Assembly (NCBI GenBank): GCA_026388415.1
Contig: JAPLJV010000004.1
Location: 530-64,529 of the forward strand
Source of the DNA: Deltaproteobacteria bacterium
Lineage (GTDB): Bacteria > Desulfobacterota > Syntrophia > Syntrophales > JACQWR01
DNA length: 64,000 bases
Direction of reading: 5' to 3'
The stretch's first letter is position 1. Each line of letters starts with the position of its first letter. Below are positions 1,993 to 21,483 of the stretch, piece after piece. Under the pieces are notes generated by a model that saw nothing but the letters and a program-made list of their open reading frames with translations, searched no databases and was not told the origin of the DNA. The translations under genes and the position numbers were made by a program.

Positions 1993-2307
1993 GAAAGGGA
2001 ACATTCGTTAGCTTGCGTCAGTGCGATTGGTAGCCTGATTTGCCACCTCAGACCATGCGGTCAGATGCTTACCCTTAAAATACAAGTCAATAGAAAAATA
2101 ACACCTGCTAAATCAATGACTTCTGTTTGAAAGGCGCGGGGTAAAACTATAAATATTATCTCCTTACTTACTTGTCCATCTACCCCTGAAAGAAATTCTT
2201 GATATTATTCCTTAATCACTGATTTTATTTGTTCAATAATTGTGATATGCGTGACCGGACCGGTGGGCACCAGAACTATAGATAAAGAGCGAAACAAACC
2301 ATAGGAT

Positions 2308-4009: not shown

Positions 4010-4022
4010 GCGATAGAAGCAA

Positions 4023-4811: not shown

Positions 4812-4938
4812 GCTATATAGTTGCTTTTTATTGCTATTTTATAGAGATAATATCCTACCGCGCCATTAGTTTCATGTATCTATAGAAAACTACCTGTTAC
4901 CTTGCTTTCAACATTCATGGTTGCATGTCGGGATTAAA

Positions 4939-4955
4939 TGTGACATTTTGTCACA
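4939..4955. promoter_or_regulatory. perfect palindrome TGTGACA-TTT-TGTCACA upstream of the methyltransferase gene (candidate operator)
   Basis: Read directly from the sequence: a 7-bp inverted repeat with a 3-bp spacer, ending 19 nt before the ATG at 4975. Confidence 0.45.
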
Positions 4956-4974
4956 AATAATCCTTGAGGTTTTT

Positions 4975-6309
4975 ATGGATAAAAATCCCGTCCCACTTAT
5001 CAAAAAAGCAGTTGATGTACATGGTCTGGAGACTGTAGCCGACAATATGGGCAAATCTCCGCGAACCATCAGGCGATGGATGGCCTACGAGACGAAAATG
5101 TCGGTAAATGACTGCCGGGTTATGGAGCAGCTCTACCTTGATCTCTATGAAGCATCTCCGAAAAAAGCTGATTTTACGTTCATTGACCTGTTTGCCGGAA
5201 TAGGCGGGCTCCGGTTGGGGTTTGAAGATATCGGCGGACAATGCATTTTCACCAGTGAATGGGATGCATATTCACAGAAAACGTACCGGGCCAACTTCAA
5301 CGACAATCACGAACTTGCCGGTGATATAAACGACATCATGGGAGATATCAGAAAACATATTCCGGTCTCTCCCGATGTCTTGCTGGCCGGTTTTCCCTGT
5401 CAGCCTTTTTCCATTGCCGGCGTCAGCAAAAAGAATGCCTTGGGCCGTCCGCATGGTTTCGCATGCAAGGAGCAGGGCAACCTGTTTTTCCATATTGCCT
5501 CTATCCTTGCTGAATTGCGGCCGCCTGCCTTCCTGCTGGAAAATGTCAAGAACCTCGAACGGCATGACAAAGGGAACACTTTCCGGGTCATCATGGATAC
5601 CTTGGTGAATAAACTGGAATACAAGGTTCATTACAAGGTGATAGATGCAAAGGGGTTTGTTCCCCAACACCGGGAACGGATTTTTATTGTCGGATTCGAT
5701 GGCGATACCGGCTTTACCTGGGATGATCTCAACCTGCCGGACCCGAAAGCCCTGACCCTGAAAGACATCCTTCAGCCTGCCACGGAGGTTGACAGCAAGT
5801 ACATCCTGTCAGACCACCTGTGGCGCTATCTGCAAGACTATGCAGCAAAGCACAAGGCTGCCGGTCACGGGTTCGGTTTCGGGTTGACGGGAGAAAATGA
5901 AACTACCCGACCATTGACGCCACGATATTTCAAGGATGGCAGTGAAATACTTGTCTATCGAGGAACAGGAAAGAATCCGCGGCGTTTGACACCTCGCGAG
6001 TGTGCTCGGCTGATGGGATTCCGGGATGACTTCAAAATCCCGGTCTCAGATTTGCAAGCTTACAAACAATTCGGCAACGCATCCGTAGTGCCAGTTATTA
6101 GGGAGATTGCAAGAACGATGAATCCGCATATATTGGAAGCGGCGAAAAAAAACAGCGATAATTTGGCTATATTTTTGATGACAGACCAGCCCGAAACTTG
6201 TGGAATATGTGGCGCGCGAACTAACTGGATTGACTACAAAAACGGTCAACAACTGCATACTTGTCCAAGCTGCAATTACATCTATCTGCTGGAGGAATGT
6301 GATGAATAA
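4975..6309 (+). CDS. dcm: DNA (cytosine-5)-methyltransferase
   Basis: m5C MTase motifs in canonical order: FIDLFAGIGG (I), FPCQPFS (IV), ENVKNL (VI), QHRERIFIVGF (VIII), LTPRECARLMGF (IX), QFGNASVVPV (X). There is an extra N-terminal region of about 65 aa and a C-terminal CGIC...CPSC zinc-ribbon-like tail. ORF 4921.. trimmed to the ATG at 4975. Confidence 0.9.
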   Translation: MDKNPVPLIKKAVDVHGLETVADNMGKSPRTIRRWMAYETKMSVNDCRVMEQLYLDLYEASPKKADFTFIDLFAGIGGLRLGFEDIGGQCIFTSEWDAYSQKTYRANFNDNHELAGDINDIMGDIRKHIPVSPDVLLAGFPCQPFSIAGVSKKNALGRPHGFACKEQGNLFFHIASILAELRPPAFLLENVKNLERHDKGNTFRVIMDTLVNKLEYKVHYKVIDAKGFVPQHRERIFIVGFDGDTGFTWDDLNLPDPKALTLKDILQPATEVDSKYILSDHLWRYLQDYAAKHKAAGHGFGFGLTGENETTRPLTPRYFKDGSEILVYRGTGKNPRRLTPRECARLMGFRDDFKIPVSDLQAYKQFGNASVVPVIREIARTMNPHILEAAKKNSDNLAIFLMTDQPETCGICGARTNWIDYKNGQQLHTCPSCNYIYLLEECDE

Positions 6310-7054
6310 ATGGACTATTGAGGAACTGAAACTTGCGCTTGCGCTGTATTGCCAAATTCCCTTTGGCAAAATGCACTCCAGAAACCCCGATGTTATCAGA
6401 TTAGCAGATAAAATAGGCAGAACAGCTTCTGCTGTTGCCATGAAGTTGGTGAATTTTGCAAGTCTCGACCCAGAAATAACAGCGTCTGGCAGGACAGGTC
6501 TTGGAAATGCTTCTGCAACGGATAAAATGGTTTGGGAAACATTCCAAACTGATTGGGATAATGAGTTGCTAAAAGCAACAAAGGATCTTCCTGATTTTAA
6601 AATTCTTTCTTACGAGGATACTGAAGAACCGCTTGTTATTTCTGGCGACACGACTCGTAAGGCTGAAGTAGAAATCAGAATGAAGCAATCCATTTTCCGG
6701 CGCATGATTTTAAGCAGCTATGCTGGCGTATGTTGTATAAGTGGCCTTTCCGAGCCAAAACTACTCATTGCGAGCCATATTGTTCCGTGGAACAAGGACA
6801 GTGAAAATCGGCTGAATCCGCGCAATGGCTTATGCCTATCAGTTTTACATGATAAGGCGTTTGACAGAGGATTGATTACCGTTTTGCCTGATTATACTGT
6901 CGTTGTATCAAAGGAAATTACCAAATTAACAGACGATCGTTTTGCTCAAATCACACTTGTGGCAAATAACGGCCAAAAGATCAAAATGCCGGAAAAATTT
7001 CGTCCATTACCGGAATTTTTAACATGGCATAACCAGAATATGTTCAAACAATAA
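6302..7054 (+). CDS. HNH endonuclease (HNH_2-type, candidate restriction nuclease)
   Basis: ORF 6200.. trimmed to the ATG at 6302, which overlaps the dcm stop by 8 nt (ATGAATAA). C-terminal ASHIVPWNKDSENRLNPRNGLCLSVLHDKAFDRGLITV is the HNH_2 signature as I know it. Confidence 0.8.
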   Translation: MNKWTIEELKLALALYCQIPFGKMHSRNPDVIRLADKIGRTASAVAMKLVNFASLDPEITASGRTGLGNASATDKMVWETFQTDWDNELLKATKDLPDFKILSYEDTEEPLVISGDTTRKAEVEIRMKQSIFRRMILSSYAGVCCISGLSEPKLLIASHIVPWNKDSENRLNPRNGLCLSVLHDKAFDRGLITVLPDYTVVVSKEITKLTDDRFAQITLVANNGQKIKMPEKFRPLPEFLTWHNQNMFKQ

Positions 7055-7061
7055 CCCATGA

Positions 7062-7622
7062 CCGACTGGTAGTTATTACAAGGCAGCCGGTGTTGAAGCA
7101 TTCATCCGGAAATATGGCTACCCGGATATGACAGGGCAAGCCGGACGGGAAGACCGGCTGAATTTTGGCGGCATACATCGAATAGACAGTTATCACGAGC
7201 GAACAGGCTTGGCCATAATGCTGCTCGGTTATGACAGGGAGGCCGGCAAAATTCGTGACGCCACGGGCGGGATTGCACTGATGAATCTCAATGGTGAAGA
7301 GGCAGCCGTCTGGCGCTACACCGAAATTATGGCGCACTGGAATCGCAAGCATGCGCAGGCTGTCTACATTCCCAGCATGAGCAATAAAATTCCCGACCTC
7401 AGATACTGGTACGGCAATCTGGTACGATTGGGGATGGGAACAGATTTCCTGCTTTACCTCAAGGCAATATCGGCAGGACATATCTACTATGATCCGGGTA
7501 TTAAACTGGAAAATGCCTCGACGGCTCCCCATACAAAACAAAGAAGCCAGTTCCGCATCAGGTCGGTGTACGTGCCGTCACTGTATCACGAGATGAAGAC
7601 GGTTGATTTACTGGCTGAATAG
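7062..7622 (+). pseudogene. 5'-truncated MvaI/BcnI-family restriction endonuclease remnant
   Basis: HWNRKHAQAVYIPS, GTDFLLYLKAISAGHIYYDPGIKLE and KQRSQFRIRS resemble the C-terminal part of the MvaI/BcnI family (full length about 240 aa, from memory). The frame is open only from 7062, just after a TGA at 7059-7061. The first ATG is at 7128. The remnant begins 7 nt after the HNH stop. Confidence 0.55.
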
Positions 7623-8030: not shown

Positions 8031-9533
8031 TTATCCGATCATTCCCTGAGTAGTCACGGTCCGATTTTCCACTATAGTTTGGGTTTCCGGATAAACGTCA
8101 AGCTCAATAGTGAATATTGTTCCTTCGCCCATCTTGCTTTTCACACCTATCTTGCTGCCATGTCCTTCAATTATGCCATAGGCCATACTCAACCCGAGCC
8201 CGGTGCCTTTTCCTACGTCTTTAGTCGTGAAAAATGGATCAAATATCCGCGAAAGATTCTCTTCGGGAATGCCCTCACCCGTATCGGCGAATTCAATGGT
8301 AATGCTTTTCCGTTCAGAAGAGAAGGCGGTTGAGATGGTTAAAGTGCCGCTGCCGTGAATGGCTTCCGCGGCATTGACCAAAATGTTCATGAATACCTGT
8401 TTCAACTGGCTGCCGTTACCCCGTGCAAAAGGTAACGCCGGATCGAGGTTCTTCACTATCTGAATGTTGTGAAATAAAGCCTGATTCTCCAGGAAGAACA
8501 AGCCATCGGTAATGGCGCGATTGATATCTACGGGGTCCATAATTGGTTCGCTTTGACGAGCAAACTCGAGGAGGCTTTTCACTATTTCCTTACATCGGCC
8601 CGCTTCATGAACGATGCGGGTCAGACCCTGGCGCTGGGGATCATCTTCCGGTAGATCCTCAATTAAAAGACTGGCATAGATAAGAATACCTCCCAAGGGG
8701 TTATTTATTTCATGGGCGATCCCGGCAGCAAGCTTACCAAGAGAAGCAAGTTTTTCTGAGCTTGCCAATTGCAGGAGGGTTTCCTTTAATTTCCGTTCCA
8801 TCAGCAACCGGGGTCGTAAATCGGTAAAAATACCGACACTGGCCGTTTCGTTCCCGGAACTTCCATAAATCAGCGCAGCGGACAACTGGCAGGGTATCTC
8901 CTCGCCAGCCTTATTGATGAGGTTAAGGTGAGAGGGTATAAGTTTTCCCACTCCACCGAAATCAGGGCTGCGCAGCTTCTTCATTGTCTCTTTGGTAACA
9001 CCTGCGGGATAGATTTTGGAAATGTGCATCTTCCCAATAACCTCTTCCGCCGGATAGCCCGTCAGGGTCTCGGCGCCCTTGTTGAATATTATGATATTAC
9101 CCTTCATATCGGCAGCGATAATGCCATCCACGGAGCTGGCAATCAGGTTGGCAAAGAATTCATTTGCTTCCCGGAGCTCATTTTCAATCCGCTTTCTCTC
9201 CGAAATATCACGTATATAGGCGTAAACCTTGCGCTCGCCTTCCAATGTTATCGCCTTGGCGATGCACACCTCTACATCCTTTGTCAGCCCCCCGGCGGTG
9301 CTGAGCTTGCCCTCTGAACAGCTTTTCTCACCATAGCGTTCCGGGTGGGTAAAAAGCTCCTCCACTAACTGGTGAAAATAGGTACCTAAAAGAGAAAGGG
9401 CATTACTTCGTTTTAGTTCCCTATTATCGTAGCCGGTAATAACTGCTGCCATCTGATTGGCAAATTCCACTTTATATCGTTCATCAAAAACCAGGATAGC
9501 GTCGTTGGCCAGTTCGATAATGGACTTATACAT
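8031..9533 (-). CDS. soluble PAS-PAS sensor histidine kinase
   Basis: Two PAS-like segments; H-box AAGIAHEINNPLGG; HATPase_c GTGLGLSMAYGIIEGHGSKIGV; no TM segments seen. It starts 16 nt downstream of the metV stop. Confidence 0.9.
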   Translation of the reverse strand: MYKSIIELANDAILVFDERYKVEFANQMAAVITGYDNRELKRSNALSLLGTYFHQLVEELFTHPERYGEKSCSEGKLSTAGGLTKDVEVCIAKAITLEGERKVYAYIRDISERKRIENELREANEFFANLIASSVDGIIAADMKGNIIIFNKGAETLTGYPAEEVIGKMHISKIYPAGVTKETMKKLRSPDFGGVGKLIPSHLNLINKAGEEIPCQLSAALIYGSSGNETASVGIFTDLRPRLLMERKLKETLLQLASSEKLASLGKLAAGIAHEINNPLGGILIYASLLIEDLPEDDPQRQGLTRIVHEAGRCKEIVKSLLEFARQSEPIMDPVDINRAITDGLFFLENQALFHNIQIVKNLDPALPFARGNGSQLKQVFMNILVNAAEAIHGSGTLTISTAFSSERKSITIEFADTGEGIPEENLSRIFDPFFTTKDVGKGTGLGLSMAYGIIEGHGSKIGVKSKMGEGTIFTIELDVYPETQTIVENRTVTTQGMIG

Positions 9534-9548
9534 CGTGGTTTACTCCTT

Positions 9549-10223
9549 TCATTTGGTATATCTTTCCTTATAAGCTTCCTGAACCAGAGTTCCCTGAGTT
9601 TGATTTCGCCATTCCCTGGCAGGTTTTATCCTGAGAATGTTTTCCAACCTGTTCTGTTGCTTTAGACGTTTATGAATCTCAAACCAGGCACAAGGGGTGT
9701 CTTTGCTCACTTCACATTTACCTTCACGAGATGTTCCTCCGCATGGTCCGTTGAAAAGACTCTTGGCGCATCTTGTTACAGGGCAAATTCCTCCTGTTTC
9801 TCCAAGCACACATTCTCCACAGTTTCGGCAACTCTCCTCAAACCATCCGAGATCTCGATCCACTCCGACAAACATGGTGTTTAAAGCCGGAAAGACAGGT
9901 TTTTCAGGATAGCGGTCCGCGATGAACTGGACCCCGGCGCCACAAGCCATCGAGATGATAGCCTCAGAGGATTTTATCCTCTCATCCAGCAGGAAATAAA
10001 AATCGGCATTGCATTGTCTCTCAATCGTAAAGCCATCTATCTGGGGTGAAATATGGTCCGGTTCAAAAGCTTTTTTCAGTTCTTCATTTAAGAGATCAAC
10101 TTCCCTTTGACCCCCTGAAAGACAAATGGAAGTACAACCCCCACAACCGACATTCAAAACTTTCCTGAAGTGTTTTACCATATCCCTGATTTCGGCAAAA
10201 GGCTTTCTTTCCGCAACGATCAT
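9549..10223 (-). CDS. metV: methylenetetrahydrofolate reductase small subunit (MTHFR C-terminal-domain protein)
   Basis: ORF 9549..10400 trimmed to the ATG at 10223 (GGGAGGGAGAAA SD). MIVAERKPFAEIRDM..., VGCGGCTSIC and CPVTRCAKSLFNGPCGG are MetV/MTHFR_C hallmarks as I recall them. Confidence 0.8.
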   Translation of the reverse strand: MIVAERKPFAEIRDMVKHFRKVLNVGCGGCTSICLSGGQREVDLLNEELKKAFEPDHISPQIDGFTIERQCNADFYFLLDERIKSSEAIISMACGAGVQFIADRYPEKPVFPALNTMFVGVDRDLGWFEESCRNCGECVLGETGGICPVTRCAKSLFNGPCGGTSREGKCEVSKDTPCAWFEIHKRLKQQNRLENILRIKPAREWRNQTQGTLVQEAYKERYTK

Positions 10224-10252
10224 TTTCTCCCTCCCAGGTAAATGTCGAGAAA

Positions 10253-10663
10253 TTATCTCCGGATATGGCACTCCCCACAATACCGGGGACCTGTTTTTTT
10301 CTTTTCCTTCTGGTGGTACCCTGCGTGGCAACCGATACACTGGTCGTGAAAGGCCTGCTGCAAATTGAGGCGCAACTTTGAACCATGGCAATTTGAACAA
10401 CGGATATCCGCATTTCCCGCCTCCAGTTTACTTTCGTCGAGAACATTTTTCCCCTTTTGATAAAGATGATGACACGCTTTACAGTCCAGTCCGGCCTCGA
10501 TGTGCTGGTTATGGGGAAACGTCACTACCGGACGTCCTTTATTCTTAAAGGTATTCGAAGAATCTAATACCATCTTGTCCTGCTGCGCCATGAGGACGGA
10601 TCCGGTTAAAGCGATCATGGCCGCCAACGTGATCATCAGAATCATGACGCATTTCCATTTCAT
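10253..10663 (-). CDS. periplasmic tetraheme cytochrome c (c3 family)
   Basis: Signal peptide MKWKCVMILMITLAAMIALTGSVLMA. Four CxxCH motifs (CKACH, CSNCH, CIGCH, CGECH) in a mature protein of about 110 aa. Confidence 0.85.
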   Translation of the reverse strand: MKWKCVMILMITLAAMIALTGSVLMAQQDKMVLDSSNTFKNKGRPVVTFPHNQHIEAGLDCKACHHLYQKGKNVLDESKLEAGNADIRCSNCHGSKLRLNLQQAFHDQCIGCHAGYHQKEKKKTGPRYCGECHIRR

Positions 10664-10680
10664 ACCCTTACTCCCTCAAT

Positions 10681-11082
10681 CTACAACCAGCTTTCCGAAG
10701 AGACCTCATCTATCTGAGGGTACACATCCTGAGATCGGCAGATGCTACGGGTAAAAGCGATCATACTCGGAATGTTAATGCCGATTGGGCAATAACAACG
10801 GCTACAGAGGACACAGTTTCTCCACACGATCCCCTTGATCTCTATCAAAAATCGGCGATCCACTTCACCCCGCTTTTTATATAGTTTTCCTAAAGATTGA
10901 ATGACTTTGTAAGAGGGCATGTATTGGGGATCTTTGTTATGAGCCCTATATAAGAAACAGCTTTCCGCACAAAGGCTGCAATGGGAGCAAAAAGACAGAT
11001 ATCGTTTCATTTTGCCTTTTTGACGATTCAACATCTCTTTGATCGTTTCGGTATCAATGGGCTTTATTTCCTGGTTGGACAT
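10681..11082 (-). CDS. HdrC-like / DsrK-N-terminal-like iron-sulfur protein (two putative [4Fe-4S] sites, no CCG domain)
   Basis: 133 aa. Contains CSHCSLCAESC (CxxCxxCxxxC) and CVLCSRCYCP (CxxCxxCxCP). No signal peptide, so predicted cytoplasmic. Confidence 0.7.
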   Translation of the reverse strand: MSNQEIKPIDTETIKEMLNRQKGKMKRYLSFCSHCSLCAESCFLYRAHNKDPQYMPSYKVIQSLGKLYKKRGEVDRRFLIEIKGIVWRNCVLCSRCYCPIGINIPSMIAFTRSICRSQDVYPQIDEVSSESWL

Positions 11083-11123
11083 TTTGCTCTCCGTTATTCC
11101 CTATGACATCGTAATCATTTGCG

Positions 11124-11762
11124 TTACCACGTCCTGCTTCCCCGGGTGAAACTGTATTCGCTCCCGATCAAGAAACGATACAGGAAGAAAAAGAGCATGT
11201 GACCCAATTTCGTAAACGGGATGGCTATGAGCAGGAGTTCTCCCGCGAGAATGTGAAGGATCATGATAATATGATAGTCAAACCACTGATGATATGCCAG
11301 AAATCCGGTTAAAAAGGGGGCGACTGCTATGAGCAGAACAACATAGTCGTATAGCGAAGTGATGGCTCGAACCCGAGCCAGAAAAAGGCGCCGCATCAGG
11401 AAAAACGCCGCGCAGATCAGTACCGCTATCGTCAACCCGTCGGTGAAAGATTCAGGGAGATTCCCAAGGCTTACCCCCCAAGACTGATTCAGGAGAATAT
11501 TATGTCCCAGCAAGAAAATGGGCGCGAGGATCAGGCAGACATGGAACACCGATGTCGCAATCATCATGAGGGGATCGGTTTTCCATAAAGTCCATTGCCG
11601 GGAAGTAAGGGCGAAGAATGGTTTTTCCATGCCGGCGAGGGGTGGCAAAATCCATTCTTTTTTTTTCGTCAATTTGAAAAATTGGCTCCCCTGATAGAGC
11701 AGCCCCAAAACAAATATGATAAAAGAGGTGGATACTAACTGGCCTCCGATCAAATCGTACAT
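11124..11762 (-). CDS. NarI/DsrM/HdrE-family membrane cytochrome b-like protein
   Basis: 212 aa with about 5-6 hydrophobic helices. His residues in helix contexts (FHVCL, LGHNIL, ILHILAGE, FTKLGHMLFF); the C-terminal P-F-T-K-L-x-H motif is typical of the nitrate-reductase-gamma family. Confidence 0.7.
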   Translation of the reverse strand: MYDLIGGQLVSTSFIIFVLGLLYQGSQFFKLTKKKEWILPPLAGMEKPFFALTSRQWTLWKTDPLMMIATSVFHVCLILAPIFLLGHNILLNQSWGVSLGNLPESFTDGLTIAVLICAAFFLMRRLFLARVRAITSLYDYVVLLIAVAPFLTGFLAYHQWFDYHIIMILHILAGELLLIAIPFTKLGHMLFFFLYRFLIGSEYSFTRGSRTW

Positions 11763-11776
11763 GAACCTCTCCTTAT

Positions 11777-12700
11777 CTAAACTTGAGGTCTGGGAAGGAG
11801 CTTGGCCCGTTCAGCGATTTCCGGCACCCGATGTTCCCATTCAATGGCCATCAGATGAATCCCATGTAATCCCTTAATTTGCTTCATCTCCTCAATCTGC
11901 TCAAGGCAGATTTTAATTCCTTCTTCGGCGCCGGCGCCCTTGGGCGCTTTTGCCATCCGGTCTATGATATCATCAGGGATAGTAATGCCGGAGACATTAT
12001 TTGCCATGTATCGGGCCATACCGACTGATTTAAGAGGGGTCACTCCCGCCAGAATGTGCACCTTTTCGGTCAGTCCCATATCGCTGGCCTGTTTCATCCA
12101 TTCCCGGAACAGTTTCATGTCATAAATGCATTGAGTCTGGATAAAGTCTGCCCCCGCGCTTATTTTTTTTGCCAAACGATGGACCCGCCATTCAAAAGGT
12201 TCAGCAAAGGGATTGGCAGCAGCGCCGATGAAGAGCTGAGGCGCCCCATCAATATCATCGCCGTTAAGAAATTTTTTGTCATCCCGCATCCTCTTTACCA
12301 TTTGGACAAGTTGGATGGAATCAATGTCGAAGACCCCTTTGGTAAAAGGATGGTTGCCAAATTGCTGGTGGTCGCCTGATAGACAGAGCATATTCCGGAT
12401 ACCATGAGCATAGGCGCCCAGGATATCGCTCTGCATGGCGATACGGTTGCGGTCCCGACAGACCATCTGATAGTTCGGTTCCAACCCTTCCTGAATGGCA
12501 ATTAAAGCCGCCGCCCAACTTGCCATTCGCACGACAGCAGTTTGGTTATCTGTGATGTTCACCATATCGGTGATCCCTTTTAGGTAACCGGCTTTCTTTC
12601 GGATCGCCTCCACATTGGCCCCCTGGGGCGGGCCGAGTTCAGAAGTGAAAGCAAAATGTCCAGCTTCGAGAACTCTTTCAAGACGGCTTCCTGACTTCAT
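11777..12700 (-). CDS. metF: 5,10-methylenetetrahydrofolate reductase (acetogen-type MetF)
   Basis: ORF 11777..12733 trimmed to the ATG at 12700 (MKSGSRLERVLEAG...), which removes the overlap with acsE. MetF-family sequence throughout (NITDNQTA, CLSGDH, FIQTQ). Confidence 0.9.
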   Translation of the reverse strand: MKSGSRLERVLEAGHFAFTSELGPPQGANVEAIRKKAGYLKGITDMVNITDNQTAVVRMASWAAALIAIQEGLEPNYQMVCRDRNRIAMQSDILGAYAHGIRNMLCLSGDHQQFGNHPFTKGVFDIDSIQLVQMVKRMRDDKKFLNGDDIDGAPQLFIGAAANPFAEPFEWRVHRLAKKISAGADFIQTQCIYDMKLFREWMKQASDMGLTEKVHILAGVTPLKSVGMARYMANNVSGITIPDDIIDRMAKAPKGAGAEEGIKICLEQIEEMKQIKGLHGIHLMAIEWEHRVPEIAERAKLLPRPQV

Positions 12701-12717
12701 GGATATTTCCCTTTTCG

Positions 12718-13620
12718 TTAAAACTCCAACCATGAATCCGAGTAAAGGGTCTTCCCGATCAAGACCTTGGTCGTCTTGATAAAGTTCACCTGTTCCTTCG
12801 TCAGCGAGGCAACAGCAATATCCTCGCCATCCATCGTACGGGCGACAATATCCCGGAGTTCTGGCCTGCTGCCGCTGGCAAGGGCCTTAATTTCTTCGTC
12901 GAAGGCATCTACGATGCAGCTTACCATGCCGTATCTCTCCAGCATCATCATGTAGGTCTGATTAATGATGGGGCGCAAATGGTCCGGGGCGCCGTTGGAA
13001 ACATTGGAAAGACCGCAGGTTGACTTCAGCCCCGGGGCCATCTCCTGGAAATCCTGAAACATCATCATGAATTCCACACAGCTCGGCACCTGCACCTGGC
13101 TTTGGGGGCTGGTAATGGGTGTGACGATGGGATCAATCCACAAATCCTCATTAGGAATGCCGAATTCCGCGGCCTTCAGCATTAACTCCGCTGCCAGCAC
13201 GCCTCTTTCACTGGCATCCCGGGGCAGCCCGGAAGGTCCCCAGAGGAGGGCCACCAGGCCGGCATTGTATTTCTGGGCCAGGGGAAATTTTGCGGCCATG
13301 CTCTCCGGGCGAGCCATCACCGAATTGATGACGGGTTTGCCCTTTTTGTTTTGGTACACCTTCAAGCCCGCCTCGATGGCTTCGTTGTTAATCGTATCTA
13401 AGTACAAGGGAGTGTCAACAACTTCCTGCACGACTTTGACCACCCACTCCATTAATTCGGCGCCATCTTTCCGCGCCGGTCCCAAGTTGATATCTATATA
13501 GTCAACCCCAGCTTTGGCCTCGGCGATGGCCAGTTCCTGGATCGGCTTGGGGTCCCTGTCCTTCATCGCCGTACCTATTCTCTTAACCATTACATTAAGG
13601 TTTTCTCCGACACGAATCAT
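12718..13620 (-). CDS. acsE: methyltetrahydrofolate:corrinoid/iron-sulfur protein methyltransferase
   Basis: 300 aa. Pterin-binding fold sequence (IGENLNV..., DYIDINLGP, PLYLDT, GLSNVSNG). GAGGAGGAG SD. Sits in the ACS gene context. Confidence 0.9.
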   Translation of the reverse strand: MIRVGENLNVMVKRIGTAMKDRDPKPIQELAIAEAKAGVDYIDINLGPARKDGAELMEWVVKVVQEVVDTPLYLDTINNEAIEAGLKVYQNKKGKPVINSVMARPESMAAKFPLAQKYNAGLVALLWGPSGLPRDASERGVLAAELMLKAAEFGIPNEDLWIDPIVTPITSPQSQVQVPSCVEFMMMFQDFQEMAPGLKSTCGLSNVSNGAPDHLRPIINQTYMMMLERYGMVSCIVDAFDEEIKALASGSRPELRDIVARTMDGEDIAVASLTKEQVNFIKTTKVLIGKTLYSDSWLEF

Positions 13621-13654
13621 CTGCTGCTGCTCCTCCTCAATTAATTTCTAATTA

Positions 13655-15001
13655 CTAAACGCCCATTTTCAGGAACGGTGCCAGGTGAGCAGCTTCGCGC
13701 GGCCCGATCTTCACTTCCCATTCCGGTCCCAGTTCCTCTTCCAGATCGCCGCTGACGGCGGCCACAAATCCAGGAATGATGAGCTTCTTATGCTTGACTC
13801 GCTCGGTAATGCCACATTTCTTGACAAACTGGCCAATAGCATCACCGACAAATTTACCGGCAGCCCAGGCGGTAAGAACGGACAGTCCTTCCGTGTCCAT
13901 GACCAAAAGCCAGCTCGACACGCGGCTCGCCTCTATTTCACCGGACACGATAAAGTAGGTCAAAGCAAAATTGGTGGTAATCAGTACGGGGGAATCCTCC
14001 GTGGGATTGCCGATCGGATAGATGCCCTGCTTCATCATCATCGGACGTTGCGGGTCGGTGTAGATATTGAGTCGCGAGACTAAAAGGGGGAATAAGACTT
14101 CTCCCTGGAAGTCGGAAAGAACTATAATTCCAGCATATTTGGCTATGAACATGGCAGCTATGAGCGCCTCCTTAGCTGGATTGGCCGTCATTTCGCAGGG
14201 GAAGGTGATCGTGGGAAATCCCAGGGAGCGATTCTTCTGCACCAGGGCGGCGCGGCGTAAAAATACCTGATCCTCGAAGGCGCGACGCACTGTTCGGGCG
14301 CCGGTGTCCAGGACGATGTCCTTTATTCCGGCCGCACTCAGTTTATCCGTCAGAGCGCTCAGGCTATCCATATTATCGGCCCTGGCAGCCAGCGGACATT
14401 TGTATTCCCTGGCTAAGGCCGCCAGCGCATCGCTGTTGCCATCGGTAGCGGCGTAAATCAGCGGCAGGCGAGCTGCCGATACCTTGACCGCAGCCGTCAT
14501 GGCCTCCACATTGGTGCTCATGAGGACCAAAGCGGCATCCGTCTCATCCATGACCTTTTTGACCAGCGCTTCATACTTGCCGGCATCCCCGGATTCATTC
14601 TTGAGGGCGATCATCTCGGGACGCAGCACGAGTCCAATCCACTCATACCGCAATTCCTTAAAGCGTTTGATCCGACCCGCGACCTCGTCTGCGGCCATGG
14701 CATCGCTAATGAGAATAGCGAACCCCGGTTTGTTGACGAAGGTTTTTTCATGACGGAAAAGAACCGTTTCGCCGCCGATTTTCACCACGTTATCGCCCGG
14801 GCCAAAAGCAATCGGTCGAATGGGCGGCGCCGATGCTTCCGAAAGCTGAGCACTTGATTCCTCTGATATATGCGGGCATGAGGCTAATTCCGCCTTGGCT
14901 GCCGCCAGATTCATGGCAAAGGCCAGACAGGTAGGCACCCCGCATTCACCGCAGTTTGTTTTGGGCAATAACTTAAATATCTGAATCCCCGTCAGAGCCA
15001 T
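13655..15001 (-). CDS. acsC: corrinoid iron-sulfur protein large subunit
   Basis: The N-terminal LPKTNCGECGVPTCLAFAMNLA [4Fe-4S] motif is typical of AcsC/CdhE. 448 aa. Confidence 0.9.
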   Translation of the reverse strand: MALTGIQIFKLLPKTNCGECGVPTCLAFAMNLAAAKAELASCPHISEESSAQLSEASAPPIRPIAFGPGDNVVKIGGETVLFRHEKTFVNKPGFAILISDAMAADEVAGRIKRFKELRYEWIGLVLRPEMIALKNESGDAGKYEALVKKVMDETDAALVLMSTNVEAMTAAVKVSAARLPLIYAATDGNSDALAALAREYKCPLAARADNMDSLSALTDKLSAAGIKDIVLDTGARTVRRAFEDQVFLRRAALVQKNRSLGFPTITFPCEMTANPAKEALIAAMFIAKYAGIIVLSDFQGEVLFPLLVSRLNIYTDPQRPMMMKQGIYPIGNPTEDSPVLITTNFALTYFIVSGEIEASRVSSWLLVMDTEGLSVLTAWAAGKFVGDAIGQFVKKCGITERVKHKKLIIPGFVAAVSGDLEEELGPEWEVKIGPREAAHLAPFLKMGV

Positions 15002-15020
15002 TTCTACTCTCCTTCCAGCT

Positions 15021-15092
15021 TAAAAAAGTGCTGAGTTCCGAGTACTGAGTGCTGAGTACTTTCTTTTACTTAGTCCTCAGCACTTAGCACTC
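15021..15092 (-). repeat. intercistronic palindromic repeat, copy 1 (terminator-like hairpin plus U-tract, between acsB and acsC)
   Basis: Plus strand: TAAAAAAGTGCTGAGTTCCGAGTACTGAGTGCTGAGTACTTTCTTTTACTTAGTCCTCAGCACTTAGCACT. On the minus (mRNA) sense the AGTGCTAAGTGCTGAGG arm pairs with the downstream arm and is followed by UUUUUU. The element ends 19 nt before the acsC ATG. Confidence 0.8.
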
Positions 15093-15116
15093 TTCCTTTA
15101 TATGATCTATTAGACA

Positions 15117-17330
15117 CTATCCCAGTATTGATTCCATGGTAAGCGCCGGGTGGTTCTTTTCCGTCAAGAACGGCAGAATCTCATCTTCTGTGACCCCGAT
15201 CGTCTCATCGGCGATCATATCAACAAAATTGGCAATTCCCAGTTCGGCCGCCCGTTTCTCCAATCGCTCCCTCAGCTCCTCTTTGAGTATCTTGGGCATC
15301 CACACTAATCTTGGCAATCCTCCGTCGCCTGTCACCCACTTGCGCTGGGTGATATTGTACTTGCTGTGACCGAGGAATCCGGGCGTGACGCCGCCGCCGC
15401 CGGCTGTTCCGGCCAGGGTGGAGAACTTCATTCCGGAGGGGGTCATGCCGTTGAAATCACGGTTCACTGTCATGATGCCATTGCACATGGGCATAACGGC
15501 GGCGATACATTCGCAGCATCCGCAGGTGGTCATGGGATCGTTCATGAGGCTGTACATGCTCACCGCTTCGATCTTCTGCCGGGAAGCGTTGAACACAAAG
15601 TCGTTTACGCCCTTCCACTGGCCGTAGCGATCGTTAAGTGTTTCTCCCTTGGGTACAGGCTGGTTTGGTCCCGTAGGATTGATCTCGAAGGAGGCCTTGC
15701 AGTCCATCCAGTTATAGGCGCCGCAGAGCCCGGTCCGTTCGGGGCTGATAACGCAGACGTGGCTGGGGGCAAAGGACTGGCAGAGGGTGCAGGAGTAGAA
15801 AGTATCGGTGGTCTCGTCGGTCATGCCCTCCACCCGGGCGTCCCGCTTGGCGTAAACTGTCCGGGCCTTGGTCACAAGCTCGCTCACCTTTGCCTTTTCC
15901 GTATAGATCTTTACCTGCACCTTGTCGAAGATGGCTCCGAAATCCTGGTGGAACCTGGCATGAAGGATCCGGCCAATATCGGCCAGGCGGAACCCCTTAT
16001 CCACCGCGGCCTTGCCGACCCTCAACCAGGCAATATCCCGCTGACCAATATGCATGATACCTTGGGCATAATTGATCAGGTGGTGAATCTGACGTTCCAG
16101 GATAGGCTCGAAATCCTCCTGCATCTTCCGGCCCGCCACCTCCGCCACAATGGCTAAGGGGAGCTGGGCCGGCGGAGTGAGTTGATCCAGATCGGGACCG
16201 ATAACCTCTACCCTGCCGTCTTCGACTTCGGCGATGCTCATGGAGGTAACCCACTCCACAGCCTGGGTCCGGCCACCGCCGCACTCCAGATAGATATCCT
16301 CGCCGCGGACCCGTTCGCCTTCAAAGGCCGGTCCATAGGCGACCGGCACCGGGACATTGGACACCGTAACCTTCAGGCCCCTTACCTCGACGGACCGCTG
16401 GACTATCTGGTCGTGAGGGACATTGGCCACCACATGTTCATAGGTACACACGCCCGTGGGCAGGATTTCCGGGATATCCGTATCGGCGATGGTGGGGAAG
16501 CCCCAGTTCACGCAACCCGCAGCGTTGGCCGCCCACTCGGCGCCTACATCGCCCAGGGCGTTGACAAAGGCAAATATCCGGTCCTTATTGTAAAGAAGCA
16601 TCTTCTTGGCGTCGCCTGGTTGCACCCCGCCAAAGGCCATGGCAGCCCGGTTGGCAAAACCCAGGGCGAAGACGGCGGCGGAGATATCCGGTCCGAAGGG
16701 GACCAGACGGGTGTTCCAGCCGATCTGCACCCCTGCTTCGCGGAGCTGCTCCGAGAAGGTGGTGCCGTTCTGGTTGCCGGCCATGAATACATAGAGGTTC
16801 TTTTTCTGATATTCCTCGGCAATCATCTTTGCCGTTCCGGGATCGGGGGCGGCGCCCACAATGGCAGCAAAGCCCGGGGCGGAGCCGTCCACAAATTCGA
16901 TCCCCCGCTTCCGGAAGATCACGTCCCCGGCAGCGCCCAGCCAGATCTTGCCGGAGACCTCGTCAATCTCCTCGCTCGTGAGGTAAAAATCGGGATCCTC
17001 GATATAGCGAATGGCCTCCACTATTTCCTCGGCCAGGATGGCCGCCATGCCGGCATCCAGCAGGGGGCCAAGGTAGGGCAGGTGATAAACATTCTTTATG
17101 TGGGACGGGAGCAGACCCCGACAGATTTCCATAGGTTTCCTGGCATCGCCCAGGGTCTTGACCGGGATGCCCAGAATCGAATAGATAATGGGCAGGTAAT
17201 AGGCGGTATTGGGAAATTCCAGTTTCTGTTCAGGTCCGTATTTTTCCAAGGCCTTCTTCAATTTACCCTCGGCCTTGGAAACGATATTGTATGCGCCCTG
17301 AATGGCGGCAAAGGCAACTAATTTGGACAT
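15117..17330 (-). CDS. acsB: acetyl-CoA synthase (CODH/ACS alpha subunit)
   Basis: 737 aa. A-cluster ligand regions CTLCQSFAPSHVCVISPERTGLCGA and TTCGCCECI. N-terminus typical of bacterial AcsB. Confidence 0.95.
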   Translation of the reverse strand: MSKLVAFAAIQGAYNIVSKAEGKLKKALEKYGPEQKLEFPNTAYYLPIIYSILGIPVKTLGDARKPMEICRGLLPSHIKNVYHLPYLGPLLDAGMAAILAEEIVEAIRYIEDPDFYLTSEEIDEVSGKIWLGAAGDVIFRKRGIEFVDGSAPGFAAIVGAAPDPGTAKMIAEEYQKKNLYVFMAGNQNGTTFSEQLREAGVQIGWNTRLVPFGPDISAAVFALGFANRAAMAFGGVQPGDAKKMLLYNKDRIFAFVNALGDVGAEWAANAAGCVNWGFPTIADTDIPEILPTGVCTYEHVVANVPHDQIVQRSVEVRGLKVTVSNVPVPVAYGPAFEGERVRGEDIYLECGGGRTQAVEWVTSMSIAEVEDGRVEVIGPDLDQLTPPAQLPLAIVAEVAGRKMQEDFEPILERQIHHLINYAQGIMHIGQRDIAWLRVGKAAVDKGFRLADIGRILHARFHQDFGAIFDKVQVKIYTEKAKVSELVTKARTVYAKRDARVEGMTDETTDTFYSCTLCQSFAPSHVCVISPERTGLCGAYNWMDCKASFEINPTGPNQPVPKGETLNDRYGQWKGVNDFVFNASRQKIEAVSMYSLMNDPMTTCGCCECIAAVMPMCNGIMTVNRDFNGMTPSGMKFSTLAGTAGGGGVTPGFLGHSKYNITQRKWVTGDGGLPRLVWMPKILKEELRERLEKRAAELGIANFVDMIADETIGVTEDEILPFLTEKNHPALTMESILG

Positions 17331-17343
17331 GCTGCATCCTCCT

Positions 17344-17426
17344 TAAAAAAGTGCTGAGTTCCGAGTACTGAGTACTGAGTACTGAGTGCTGAGTACTTTC
17401 TTTTACTCAATCCTCAGCACTCAGCA
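17344..17426 (-). repeat. intercistronic palindromic repeat, copy 2 (longest copy, between acsA and acsB)
   Basis: Same core as copy 1, with extra GAGTACT heptamer units (CCGAGTACTGAGTACTGAGTACTGAGTGCTGAGTAC). It lies 7 nt after the acsA stop and 13 nt before the acsB ATG. Confidence 0.8.
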
Positions 17427-17433
17427 TTTGCAT

Positions 17434-19521
17434 TTACCCCGCGGCCAGCTTCTGCCGATCCGCCATATCCATCAGGACCCGTTCACGGGCCTTGTCAATA
17501 CCTAAGGCCTTGCGCTTCTTGTCAATGTGGGCCAGCATCCGGCGGGCCATTTCGTAGGGATCCGAAACCACATCCCATTTGCCGCCCACTATCTTTTCCA
17601 AACCATTGAAGAGGTAATCCTTGAATACAGGCGACCCATCAATGGGCAGACCGGCGCCGAAGATGACATATACACCGCTGCCGACAAAATAATGTCCGAT
17701 GGCCACCGCCTTTTCACTCATCCATTCGGGGGCGCACCCCGCCAACGGCAGATCGCTCAGATCGTTGCCCAGGCCTCCCGCAGCCACTACTGCGGAGGCA
17801 GCCGAGAGCATCCGGCTGTTATCCACGCAGGAACCCATGTGCAGAATCGGGGGGATGCCCACGGTCTCACAAACTTCCGCCAGACCGGGTCCACAATAGA
17901 CCATCGCCGCCTCGGGTGTCAAAAGGCCCGCCTTGCCGAAGGCCATGGCGGCACAGCCCGTAGTCAGGATAATTACGTCATTTTTGAGCAGCTCCTTAGC
18001 CAGAATCAAATGGGCGTTGTCGTGCATCGTCCGGGCATTGTTGCATCCCACAATGGCGGCGATACCCCGGATCCGTCCATTGATGATGTTGTCATTCAGG
18101 GGGACATAAGAGCCGCGGAAGGTTCCGCCCAGGTTATACTCTATGGCCTCGTAGCTGAAACCCACGACCATCTTCTCTTTCTCCCGGGGGATCATCGCTT
18201 CCCCGCGACGATTGGGGAAGTTGTCAATGGCAATCTTCACTATCTTTTTGGCATCTGCCAGGGCGTTATGTTCGTCAAACTCCACATGGATCGTTGCGCC
18301 AGAGGCGATTTTGCAGCGTGTATTGGTGGTGATAAGCTTCGTATGGTAGCAGGCGCAGACATTGGCCAGGCTTTCCATGATACACTGGACATCCACCGTC
18401 ATGGCATCCACCACGCCGGTAACGATAGCCAGTTCCTGCTGCAGGAAGTTCCCGGCAATGGGCAGTCCGTGGCGGAGCAGAATTTCATTGGCCGTACAGC
18501 ACATACCGGCCAGGACAATGCCTTTGGCGCCCTTGCTTTTCGCATAGTCAAGCATCTCAGGATCCCGTACGGCCGCCACGATCATCTCCGGCAGCAACGC
18601 CTCATGACCATGGACGATAATATTTACGTGGTCTTCCTTCAGGACACCGAGGTTGATCTCACCGAGAATGGGCTTGGGAGTGCCGAACATGACATCCTGC
18701 AAATCAGTGGCAATCATCGAACCGGCCCAGCCATCCGCCAGGGCGGCGCGGAAACACTGTTTGACAAGGTTCTGGTAATCCTGATCTACCCCCATATGGG
18801 TCCGGTGCATGATCTCGACGATCTCCCTGTCTATTCCCCGGGGGATAATGTCCAGTTTCTTCCATAGGTCATACCGCGCCTGCGGAGCGCGTTTGGCGTA
18901 ATAGATTTCACCCTCCTGTTTGCCCCATTCACCCAAGGCTTTTTCCCCGACCTCCACAGCGATTTCGTATTTATTCCGCGGTGTTGCCACACTATCAACT
19001 GTGACGCTGATGGCCACGCCGAAGTCCGGGGCAATCGCCCGCAGTTTTTTCTCATCCACAATGTCATAATCCGGCGATTCGCGACGGGCTGCCGCCAGGA
19101 ATACCGCGGCGACGGTGCGACCGTGGTCGGAATGAGAGGCCGAGCCGGCGGCCACCATCCGGGAAAAATTTCGGGCCGCAATTGTTTCCGGCGTGGCGCC
19201 GCATAGCCCCTGCCGGGTATCTTTTCCCTCTGTATTTTCCAAATCCCCCCTTAAACCCCCTTTGGTAAAGGGGGGGATGGGGGAGTTTTTGGTCAGGGGC
19301 AGGCGGCAGGGCCCCTGGGCGCATAGCTTGCAGCAGGTGCCCTGGGCGCCGATATTGCACGGTTTCATGTTTTCGGCACGATCAAATATGGTCTCCACCC
19401 CATCGGCCTGTGCCTTGTAGAGCATCTTGATGGTAGCCTGATCCACCGACTTTTCTTCCGGTTTAATCTGTTTCTTTTCCTTCTCCAGGGGCCTTATCTT
19501 GTCTTTTATCTCGTCCGACAT
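17434..19521 (-). CDS. acsA: Ni-Fe carbon monoxide dehydrogenase catalytic subunit (CODH/ACS beta)
   Basis: 695 aa. CNIGAQGTCCKLCAQGPCR (B/D-cluster Cys) and a CooS-family body. Carries an extra segment between PCR and GLCGA (see findings). Confidence 0.95.
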   Translation of the reverse strand: MSDEIKDKIRPLEKEKKQIKPEEKSVDQATIKMLYKAQADGVETIFDRAENMKPCNIGAQGTCCKLCAQGPCRLPLTKNSPIPPFTKGGLRGDLENTEGKDTRQGLCGATPETIAARNFSRMVAAGSASHSDHGRTVAAVFLAAARRESPDYDIVDEKKLRAIAPDFGVAISVTVDSVATPRNKYEIAVEVGEKALGEWGKQEGEIYYAKRAPQARYDLWKKLDIIPRGIDREIVEIMHRTHMGVDQDYQNLVKQCFRAALADGWAGSMIATDLQDVMFGTPKPILGEINLGVLKEDHVNIIVHGHEALLPEMIVAAVRDPEMLDYAKSKGAKGIVLAGMCCTANEILLRHGLPIAGNFLQQELAIVTGVVDAMTVDVQCIMESLANVCACYHTKLITTNTRCKIASGATIHVEFDEHNALADAKKIVKIAIDNFPNRRGEAMIPREKEKMVVGFSYEAIEYNLGGTFRGSYVPLNDNIINGRIRGIAAIVGCNNARTMHDNAHLILAKELLKNDVIILTTGCAAMAFGKAGLLTPEAAMVYCGPGLAEVCETVGIPPILHMGSCVDNSRMLSAASAVVAAGGLGNDLSDLPLAGCAPEWMSEKAVAIGHYFVGSGVYVIFGAGLPIDGSPVFKDYLFNGLEKIVGGKWDVVSDPYEMARRMLAHIDKKRKALGIDKARERVLMDMADRQKLAAG
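19243..19278. repeat. G/C-run palindromic element embedded in-frame in acsA
   Basis: ATCCCCCC TTAAA CCCCCTTT GGT AAAGGGGG GGAT. The inner hairpin CCCCCTTT/AAAGGGGG (19256-19274) and the outer ATCCCCCC/GGGGGGAT arms were read directly from the sequence. Confidence 0.6.
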
Positions 19522-19534
19522 CTACGCTCCTCCT

Positions 19535-19584
19535 TAAAAAAGTGCTGAGTACTTTCTTTTGCTCAGTCCTCAGCACTCAGCACT
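19535..19584 (-). repeat. intercistronic palindromic repeat, copy 3 (shortest copy, between acsD and acsA)
   Basis: TAAAAAAGTGCTGAGTACTTTCTTTTGCTCAGTCCTCAGCACTCAGCACT. On the mRNA sense AAGUGCUGAGU pairs with ACUCAGCACUU and is followed by UUUUAAGGAGG. The element ends 13 nt before the acsA ATG. Confidence 0.8.
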
Positions 19585-19623
19585 TCTCCTTATATTTCCA
19601 GGCCATGAGCCGTAAAGGGTTCT

Positions 19624-20568: not shown

Positions 20569-20572
20569 TATT

Positions 20573-21472: not shown

Positions 21473-21483
21473 TTCCTTCTCTA

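Follow-up and report, generated by a model that had tools for sequence, protein, structure and literature searches.

A candidate membrane-bound methylene-tetrahydrofolate reductase of a Syntrophales bacterium combining MetVF with a Tmc-type electron conduit

This study analyzed a five-gene block in the Wood-Ljungdahl gene cluster of a Deltaproteobacteria bacterium (Desulfobacterota, Syntrophales; assembly GCA_026388415.1, contig JAPLJV010000004.1, positions 530 to 64,529; this stretch of 64,000 nucleotides (nt) is hereafter called the window). The block comprises metF and metV, which encode the subunits of a methylene-tetrahydrofolate (methylene-THF) reductase (MTHFR), and three genes between them that encode a cytochrome b, a short iron-sulfur (FeS) protein, and a tetraheme cytochrome c3. 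On the basis of sequence comparisons, we consider it probable (approximately 0.7) that the five gene products constitute one membrane-bound methylene-THF reductase complex, in which MetVF is grafted onto a transmembrane electron conduit of the Tmc type. A replacement of the catalytic part of this conduit by MetVF is suggested most strongly by an FeS subunit without the CCG domains.

The five-gene block and its products

The genes on the minus strand are arranged in the order acsE, metF, a gene for a five-helix diheme cytochrome b, a gene for a protein of 133 amino acids (aa) with two [4Fe-4S] clusters, a gene for the tetraheme cytochrome c3, metV, and a gene for a PAS histidine kinase (Table 1). 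From acsE through the kinase gene, the gaps are 17, 14, 41, 17, 29, and 15 nt, and a Shine-Dalgarno-like purine run is located ahead of each gene. The gene order, coordinates, motifs, and gaps of 14-41 nt given in the initial annotation of this DNA were accurate in every detail. That annotation had also supposed the block to be co-transcribed. In keeping with this supposition, a promoter and terminator scan revealed no terminator-like hairpin in any gap between metF and metV; the counts of the scan were at the level of shuffled sequence, and it was otherwise uninformative. The same five genes, with equal product lengths of 307, 212, 133, 136, and 224 aa, were found in public assemblies from independent samples.

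The open reading frame (ORF) of metF reaches position 12733, and its probable start is the ATG at 12700, which yields a protein of 307 aa. The mechanical ORF of metV starts at 10400, inside the c3 gene; its probable start is the ATG at 10223, which yields a protein of 224 aa. MetF matched PF02219 (MTHFR) with an E-value of 4e-40 over model positions 1-286 of 287, and MetV matched PF12225 (MTHFR C-terminal) with an E-value of 1.7e-35 over model positions 1-95 of 95. MetV contains 13 Cys residues, including CxxCxxxC and CxxCxxC motifs. Judged by both domain matches, the window pair is of the MetVF type of methylene-THF reductase.

The FeS protein carries the cluster motifs C32xxCxxCxxxC42 and C90xxCxxCxC98P. 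It matched the NCBIfam models of HmcF (2e-32) and TmcB (5e-27), in each case only in the N-terminal part, namely at model positions 38-154 of 457 for HmcF and 22-137 of 430 for TmcB. The protein stops where the CCG domains of TmcB and HmcF would start, and it contains no CCG motif. Eight Cys residues are invariant among its homologues, the C-terminal tail (DEVSSESWL) is conserved, and the mean column identity is 82%; among the matches listed, all 120 homologues were 133-145 aa long. By sequence homology, the subunit is the N-terminal ferredoxin domain of TmcB/HmcF from which the catalytic CCG disulfide-reductase domains are gone, and we propose that it is an adaptor between the cytochrome b and MetV.

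The cytochrome b matched the TmcC model (NF045723) from end to end (positions 3-218 of 218; E-value of 6.7e-59), with a score of 199 bits, which is below the cut-off of 240. It also matched HmcE (1.7e-49) and Pfam Nitrate_red_gam (PF02665; 24.9 bits, cut-off of 22.9). Five hydrophobic transmembrane helices (TM1 to TM5) were predicted. The loops at residues 29-65, 128-136, and 184-212 contain seven, two, and four Lys and Arg residues, respectively, and the alternate loops contain none (0, 0, 0). According to the positive-inside rule, this pattern points to the topology of NarI, with the N-terminus in the periplasm and the C-terminus in the cytoplasm. Among 12 homologues, His74, His87, His158, His170, and His188 were invariant. 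His74 and His87 are on TM2, whereas His170 and His188 are located 18 residues apart on TM5, a spacing that matches that of His187 and His205 in NarI. In the predicted topology, His74 and His188 face the cytoplasm, and His87 and His170 face the periplasm. With five transmembrane helices, an N-out/C-in orientation, and His pairs on TM2 and TM5, the protein is assigned to the NarI fold. Its score and its side of the tree split described below place it outside TmcC itself, as a homologous sister subfamily to canonical TmcC. A Foldseek search with its AlphaFold2 model returned NarI chains as the top eight matches, which were weak and not significant (E-values of 0.5-1.3, TM-scores of 0.43-0.49).

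The window copy of the cytochrome b lacks approximately 9-10 residues (about positions 47-57, in the first cytoplasmic loop) that all 11 aligned homologues possess; it is 212 aa long, compared with 219-231 aa. A PDB sequence search with the cytochrome b, the FeS protein, and MetV yielded nothing useful in a set without Tmc, Hmc, or MetV structures.

The cytochrome c has a Sec-type signal peptide, four CxxCH motifs at residues 61, 89, 109, and 129, and five further His residues. It matched Pfam Cytochrom_CIII (6e-11) and the TmcA model NF045722 (2.3e-25); its score of 88.9 bits is below the TmcA cut-off of 114, which the canonical TmcA of Desulfacinum also fails to reach (99.4). Its PDB sequence matches were HmcA (1.5e-15) and the 103-residue cytochrome c3 chain 3cao (1.2e-13). 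The window also encodes the outer-membrane biogenesis genes lpxABDK, bamA, and ompH. The presence of genes for lipid A and outer-membrane assembly suggests that the organism is diderm and has a periplasm, in which a periplasmic cytochrome makes sense.

The profile comparisons bore out the protein families that the initial annotation had expected, namely a NarI-fold cytochrome b, a protein with two [4Fe-4S] clusters, a class III tetraheme cytochrome c, and an MTHFR C-terminal domain on MetV. The architecture had been likened to complexes of the DsrMK/Tmc/Hmc/Qmo type. The Tmc/Hmc part of this comparison stood (TmcC, 6.7e-59; TmcA, 2.3e-25; HmcF N-domain, 2e-32), whereas the DsrMK and Qmo parts did not. 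An identity of the trio as NarI, DsrMK, or Qmo was rejected on scores of 16 bits for narI, 17 bits for QmoC, and 30.3 bits for DsrK, compared with 199 bits for TmcC; the DsrK model, which has a cut-off of 400 bits, matched only the N-terminal part on the short FeS protein.

Conservation of the cassette across genomes

A profile of the cytochrome b was scanned over one genome per species, which yielded 80 loci; the window proteins were placed on these loci by tblastn, and ORF lengths were measured. The results revealed that MetV and/or MetF were adjacent to and co-oriented with the cytochrome b in 61 of the 80 loci. The metagenome-assembled genomes (MAGs) with MetVF-linked loci were labeled Thermodesulfobacteriota/Syntrophales, Myxococcota, Planctomycetota, Fibrobacterota, and Spirochaetota, that is, five or more phyla. 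MetVF was absent from 17 loci, which belonged to Desulfacinum, Desulfosoma, and Desulfobacterales, and two more loci stop at a contig edge.

The linked loci displayed five or more gene orders. The window order, MetF-b-FeS-c3-MetV, was the order of 29 Syntrophales-type loci, and the order b-FeS-c3-MetV-MetF was observed in six loci from Fibrobacterota, Spirochaetota, and Leptospirales. Nine loci from Thermodesulfobacteriota and Planctomycetota had the order b-FeS-MetV-MetF, seven loci from Myxococcota and other "delta" MAGs had MetF-b-FeS-MetV, and seven Spirochaetota loci had b-FeS-MetV-MetF with the cytochrome c gene absent. The initial annotation had left room for a random juxtaposition of the genes; the recurrence of the linkage of cytochrome b and FeS protein to MetV/MetF in 61 of 80 loci, through rearranged orders and in several phyla, rules out chance. 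In the flanks of one Spirochaetota locus and one Myxococcota locus, the cassette was located amid unrelated genes and outside any acs cluster, which argues for a self-sufficient functional unit.

Several loci differ from the window in ways that concern MetV and MetF themselves. In one locus from a bin labeled Acidobacteriota (L008, 4400-7200), the order is MetF-cytochrome b-FeS-c3, with a MetF 87% identical to that of the window and unrelated sequence past the c3 gene; a rearrangement or chimerism of the contig may account for this arrangement. Among the 80 loci, the sole cultured carrier of the cassette is Desulfosarcina variabilis str. Montpellier (L047, NZ_CP159846.1, 7525568-7542242), the locus of which reads cytochrome b-short FeS-c3-MetV. 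No MetF was found within 8 kilobases on either side, and the next gene is a 216-aa ORF of unknown function. In four further loci (L004, at 1896-6964, and also L006, L011, and L028), a stretch directly upstream of the MetF-cytochrome b-FeS-c3-MetV cassette encodes an HdrA-like flavoprotein (two ORFs, one with Fer4), MvhD (FlpD, 2.5e-40), a second MetV' (45% identity), and a second MetF' (55% identity). These species thus carry the gene sets of a soluble Hdr-type and a membrane Tmc-type MTHFR in tandem. A third MetF paralogue (35-39% identity; Pfam MTHFR, 2.5e-27) is located between metV and the kinase gene in L004 (10624-11496) and at the equivalent position in approximately 20 Syntrophales-type loci; it is absent from L001-L003 and from the window, where the kinase gene directly follows metV.

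Loss of the CCG domains and co-inheritance of the cassette

All the FeS genes that were read beside MetVF encode short proteins (about 130-160 aa) without a CCG motif, whereas each of the 17 loci without MetVF encodes a TmcB/HmcF-type protein of 380-499 aa, with a literal CCG motif in 13 of them. The Desulfacinum infernum locus, which served as a control, has a TmcC of 253 bits (above the cut-off of 240) and a complete TmcB/HmcF. The two forms also differ in the second cluster motif, which is CxxCxxCxCP in 59 of 60 linked short copies and CxxCxxCxxxCP in all 15 canonical TmcB proteins; the short form thus has a two-residue deletion in this motif.

Neighbor-joining trees of the cytochrome b and the FeS domain exhibited a single split between MetVF-linked and canonical loci. 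Linked MetV and linked MetF each formed one clade, apart from their same-locus paralogues (the HdrA-like/MvhD-associated MetV' and MetF' and the third MetF); the link and paralogue labels were assigned by position and identity threshold, and the clade test of MetV and MetF is therefore partly circular. The pairwise distance matrices of the four proteins were correlated, with r values of 0.73-0.93 (54 loci). The correlation and the clades suggest that the cassette was inherited and moved as a unit. These comparisons support a genetic and evolutionary coupling of MetVF with the redox module, and membrane-coupled catalysis by a MetVF complex is what we infer.

Fusions and Hmc-type variants

Three Spirochaetota loci encode a cytochrome b that begins with a signal peptide and a four-heme c domain, fused to its N-terminus (Pfam search on L072). 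The coordinates of these fusions are 7272-8489 in L050, 7563-8711 in L057, and 7446-8678 in L072. A metagenomic protein of 375 aa (P0244; L081, 93-1220) consists of a TmcC-like cytochrome b and a C-terminal short FeS domain with the CxxCxxCxCP motif. Both types of fusion agree with the N-out/C-in topology, which would place the cytochrome c outside and the FeS protein inside. A c3 gene lies behind the gene for P0244, and the contig stops short of any position for metV. The other longer FeS matches among the best 150 representatives were canonical TmcB/HmcF-like fragments. In L058, L073, L075, and L077-L080, Ser/Ala/Thr-rich "DATSSAS"-like repeats occupy the position of the c domain, and the cytochrome c gene is absent.

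In 14 loci with the orders b-FeS-MetV-MetF and MetF-b-FeS-MetV, HmcB- and/or HmcC-like genes follow the cassette, mostly together with a 16-heme HmcA-like gene. HmcA, HmcB, and HmcC were all matched in 12 of these loci (L029, L031, L033, L036-L038, L042, L043, L046, L048, L049, and L068), HmcA and HmcB in L035, and HmcB and HmcC in L044. The HmcA match in L029 reached 415 bits (cut-off of 400), and the HmcB and HmcC matches were below their cut-offs. These Hmc-like genes past the cassette suggest that the MetVF replacement also exists on an Hmc-type chassis.

Proposed mechanism of the complex

In canonical Tmc/Hmc complexes, the ferredoxin domain to which the short FeS protein corresponds passes electrons to a C-terminal CCG disulfide-reductase domain. 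In the proposed complex, MetVF would stand where this head is located in Tmc/Hmc. The periplasmic cytochrome c pool would exchange electrons with the TmcA-like tetraheme c3, which in turn would exchange them with the two b hemes of the TmcC-like protein, at His87 and His170 on the periplasmic side and at His74 and His188 on the cytoplasmic side. From there, the path would lead to the pair of [4Fe-4S] clusters in the short TmcB-like protein at the cytoplasmic face, then through the FeS clusters of MetV and the flavin of MetF to the methylene-THF/methyl-THF couple. The reaction would be electrogenic, with two electrons per C1 unit crossing the membrane and with protons released and consumed on opposite sides.

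The standard potentials (E0') are -414 mV for H2 and -200 mV for methylene-THF (PMC9430772), and -74 mV for menaquinone (PMC8578096). In the reductive direction, electrons from periplasmic H2 or formate would reach cytoplasmic methylene-THF in an exergonic reaction, and the redox loop would build a proton-motive force. In the oxidative direction, that is, during the oxidation of acetyl-CoA or acetate, the membrane potential would drive the electrons of methyl-THF outward to acceptors of low potential in the periplasm. The cytochrome b may additionally exchange electrons with menaquinone; such a quinone connection is plausible because of the NarI fold, the variants without a cytochrome c gene, and the HmcC/NrfD subunits in some versions. 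The sequence comparisons show what the parts are, their topology according to the positive-inside rule, the conserved linkage, the fusions, and the correlation of CCG loss with MetVF; from these we infer the contact between the FeS protein and MetV, the stoichiometry, the direction of electron flow, the energy coupling, and the use of quinone. We also incline, by a small degree, toward a fifth type of MTHFR, namely a respiratory, chemiosmotically coupled MetVF that replaces the disulfide-reductase head of Tmc/Hmc and that is encoded by a mobile cassette of four to seven genes across Thermodesulfobacteriota, Myxococcota, Planctomycetota, Fibrobacterota, and Spirochaetota.

Evaluation of alternative explanations

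Several observations weigh against a MetVF complex on a Tmc-type conduit as proposed here. The seven Spirochaetota loci without any c gene indicate that a route through periplasmic cytochromes cannot account for all versions, and L008 and the D. variabilis locus lack metV and an adjacent metF, respectively. The loci are phylogenetically related, so the correlation between short and full-length FeS proteins (60 versus 17 loci) represents few independent events. The AlphaFold2 models of the FeS protein (predicted local distance difference test (pLDDT) score of 52, unused for the fold search) and of the cytochrome b (five long helices, pLDDT of 61.7) are too poor for docking arguments. No fusion of the FeS protein to MetV or MetF was found among the best 150 representatives, and the contact between the FeS protein and MetV is deduced from co-occurrence and domain loss alone.

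The missing fusion of FeS protein and MetV would fit an arrangement without a stable complex, in which the short FeS protein would dissociate and, like a ferredoxin, carry electrons from the cytochrome b to MetVF and perhaps to other enzymes. It is a small protein of 133 aa that lacks a membrane segment, and purified type II MetVF enzymes take electrons from ferredoxin in vitro (PMC8760232). We nevertheless consider such a shuttle improbable. The FeS protein is homologous to the membrane-docked domain of TmcB/HmcF rather than to soluble ferredoxins, and a natural fusion of cytochrome b and FeS protein is known. Its conserved C-terminal tail and its column identity are typical of a fixed subunit, and its diversification closely parallels that of the cytochrome b and MetF (r of 0.93). 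An absence of any functional coupling is more doubtful still, and we give it a very small chance. The trio would then serve another cytoplasmic acceptor, MetVF would use a soluble donor, and the genes would share only the regulation of C1 and energy metabolism. Some carriers do have HdrA-like, MvhD, MetV', and MetF' genes next door and hence a soluble MTHFR route, and the D. variabilis locus retains metV but not metF. However, the adjacency and co-orientation were kept in 61 loci through at least five rearrangements and across phyla, and they were also kept where the cassette is surrounded by unrelated genes, in the Spirochaetota and Myxococcota loci with flanks examined. Moreover, the trio lost its CCG domain exactly where MetVF is present, which leaves it no cytoplasmic catalytic site of its own.

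It is also possible, though rather unlikely, that the same complex has the menaquinone pool as its physiological partner and acts as a methyl-THF:menaquinone oxidoreductase or in reverse, with a quinone site on the cytochrome b and with the cytochrome c as an optional side branch. The conserved core of the cassette is the cytochrome b, the FeS protein, MetV, and MetF, which are present without a cytochrome c gene in seven loci. The cytochrome b belongs to the NarI fold family, the founding member of which is a quinol oxidase, and the Hmc-type variants add an NrfD/HmcC-like subunit of the quinone-interacting type. Electron transfer from methyl-THF (-200 mV; PMC9430772) to menaquinone (-74 mV; PMC8578096) is downhill, which would solve the methyl-THF oxidation problem of acetate oxidizers. 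Nevertheless, a quinone site is not recognizable from the sequence, and most versions of the cassette include a cytochrome c, as a separate gene or as a fusion, which argues for periplasmic electron exchange; a NarI-like quinone site on the periplasmic side would also make the reductive direction doubly uphill. The quinone and cytochrome c routes are not mutually exclusive.

Relation to known systems

The redox parts of the window trio and their cellular layout are shared with the Tmc complex (TmcABCD, type II cytochrome c3 complex) of Desulfovibrio and other sulfate reducers, where they are the periplasmic tetraheme c3 TmcA, the NarI-fold TmcC, and the homologous N-terminal 2x[4Fe-4S] domain of the cytoplasmic FeS subunit. 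According to Pereira et al. (2006), as cited in PMC2702500, this complex passes electrons from the oxidation of periplasmic H2 across the membrane to the cytoplasm. The window proteins differ from Tmc in that all three score below the NCBI equivalog cut-offs and in that the cytochrome b and FeS protein form a sister clade to canonical TmcC and TmcB. They lack the CCG domains of TmcB, have the second motif CxxCxxCxCP, and have MetV and MetF in the operon instead. No additional ORF for TmcD, the Trp-rich cytoplasmic subunit, is present in the window operon, where the gaps are 14-41 nt and metV and metF fill the other positions. The HmcE and HmcF N-domain models of the Hmc complex (HmcABCDEF) of sulfate reducers also match the window proteins; HmcA, HmcB, HmcC, and HmcD are absent from the window, which has the tetraheme c3 instead, and the catalytic half of HmcF is missing wherever MetVF is present. 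The HdrDE and DsrMK complexes follow the same two-subunit logic, in which a NarI-fold cytochrome b docks an FeS protein with N-terminal 2x[4Fe-4S]. In contrast to them, the window trio has no CCG domains and no disulfide chemistry, and the proposed substrate is the pterin-bound C1 unit handled by MetF.

Four types of MTHFR have been described, namely MetF alone, MetVF, MetVF-RnfC2, and MetVF-HdrCBA-MvhD, and their partners are all soluble (PMC8760232), which agrees with the statement on characterized enzymes in the initial annotation. The MetVF enzymes of acetogens (types II-IV) share with the window the pair of MetF flavoprotein and MetV FeS/Zn protein and the location in a Wood-Ljungdahl cluster, next to acsE. 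Their partners are ferredoxin, RnfC2/NADH, or HdrABC-MvhD, whereas those in the window would be a cytochrome b, an FeS adaptor, and a cytochrome c. Furthermore, metV and metF are separated in the window, and no published type has a membrane subunit (PMC8760232). Pfam searches of the window ORFs at 8031-24405 (other than acsA and acsB) detected no RnfC, HdrA, HdrB/C, or FlpD domains, and tblastn detected no match to HdrA-like proteins or MvhD anywhere in the window.

The physiology proposed here is the same as that of the H2:methylene-THF chain of Sporomusa ovata, which leads from periplasmic H2 through a cytochrome b and/or quinone to methylene-THF with chemiosmotic gain (PMC9430772). In S. 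ovata, which is the best experimental case, the membrane partner was not identified (PMC9430772), whereas a candidate partner is encoded inside the window operon. Reviews state that the hypothetical membrane chains need "a membrane-integrated protein" (PMC8578096). The nearest published item is the second metF copy of "Ca. Contubernalis alkaliaceticus", which is co-localized with a membrane-anchored [NiFe] hydrogenase in a different arrangement (PMC10608574). A full-text search of the literature other than subscription journals revealed no link of Tmc/Hmc-type proteins or of any cytochrome b to MetVF; the genome paper of Desulfobacterium autotrophicum mentions Tmc/Hmc-type proteins and MetVF separately.

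The system is thus built from known parts, as a Tmc-derived module with a decapitated TmcB, and is not a new kind of machine. The membrane coupling of methylene-THF reduction is an old open question of Wood-Ljungdahl bioenergetics, and the operon provides a concrete molecular candidate for it, with a clear evolutionary origin from Tmc/Hmc by a swapped head. If the proposal is true, the methylene-THF/methyl-THF step would be a direct coupling site, energy-conserving in the reductive direction and driven by the proton-motive force in the oxidative direction. This would explain the energy gain at the methylene-THF step in cytochrome-containing CO2 reducers, as well as how oxidizers of acetate or acetyl-CoA pass the unfavorable oxidation of methyl-THF. 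It would also suggest that conduits of the Tmc/Hmc type have a modular build and can work with enzymes beyond sulfite reduction. The cultured D. variabilis carries a version of the cassette, and the hypothesis is thus directly testable.

Genomic context of the block

The acsE-like gene is located directly upstream of metF, and the methyl-THF that its product uses or produces is the product or substrate of MetF. Upstream of it, the other Wood-Ljungdahl genes are co-oriented on the minus strand from 13655 to 24405 (Table 1). Rfam and tRNA scans revealed nothing associated with this cluster. The plus-strand ORFs within 9549-12733 were rejected as spurious; they are short (60-107 aa) and antisense to well-supported genes.

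Most related Syntrophales-type loci also have the kinase gene past metV, either directly or with the metF paralogue in between, and the C-terminal part of its product is approximately 70-88% identical. The kinase may regulate the cluster. In the window, no gene for a response regulator was seen beside that of the kinase.

Table 1. Positions of the five-gene block and its neighboring genes in the window
Gene or product	Position	Strand	Basis of assignment
Cytoplasmic PAS-PAS-HisKA-HATPase sensor kinase, 15 nt past metV	8031-9533	-	Pfam
metV, FeS/Zn subunit of MetVF-type methylene-THF reductase	9549-10400 (ORF)	-	Pfam PF12225
TmcA-like periplasmic tetraheme cytochrome c3, 136 aa (predicted)	10253-10663	-	Pfam, NCBIfam
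Cytoplasmic 2x[4Fe-4S] protein, 133 aa (predicted)	10681-11082	-	Fer4_17/Fer4_8; HmcF/TmcB N-domain
TmcC/HmcE-like diheme cytochrome b, 212 aa (predicted)	11124-11762	-	NCBIfam, Pfam
metF, flavoprotein catalytic subunit of methylene-THF reductase	11777-12733 (ORF)	-	Pfam MTHFR
acsE-like methyl-THF:corrinoid/FeS-protein methyltransferase	12718-13620	-	Pfam Pterin_bind 1e-13; NCBIfam NF005719 4.3e-66
acsC	13655-15001	-	ORF table, tblastn, Pfam
acsB	15117-17330	-	Named by eye from the translation
acsA/cooS	17434-19521	-	Named by eye from the translation
acsD	19624-20568	-	ORF table, tblastn, Pfam
folD	20573-21472	-	ORF table, tblastn, Pfam
cooC	21484-22230	-	ORF table, tblastn, Pfam
RACo	22348-24405	-	ORF table, tblastn, Pfam

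Other features of the window

A restriction-modification-like island is located right past the Wood-Ljungdahl operon, on the plus strand at 4921-7622. It comprises a C-5 cytosine methylase (4921-6309), which is overlapped by an HNH_2 protein (6200-7054), and a 164-aa protein (7128-7622) that matches only the C-terminal half of MvaI/BcnI endonucleases and is possibly truncated. An Rfam abiF RNA motif (1005-1041, plus strand; 47.2 bits, gathering score of 37) lies directly beside a coaE-like gene (229-1005). The minus strand at 34685-43742 encodes a series of large proteins predicted to belong to the envelope or surface; among them are a beta-helix/NosD-like protein of 936 aa with a GNA1162-like lipoprotein domain, an fn3-rich protein of 751 aa, a TPR and CsgG-like protein of 661 aa, and an FlgT_N-like protein of 376 aa.

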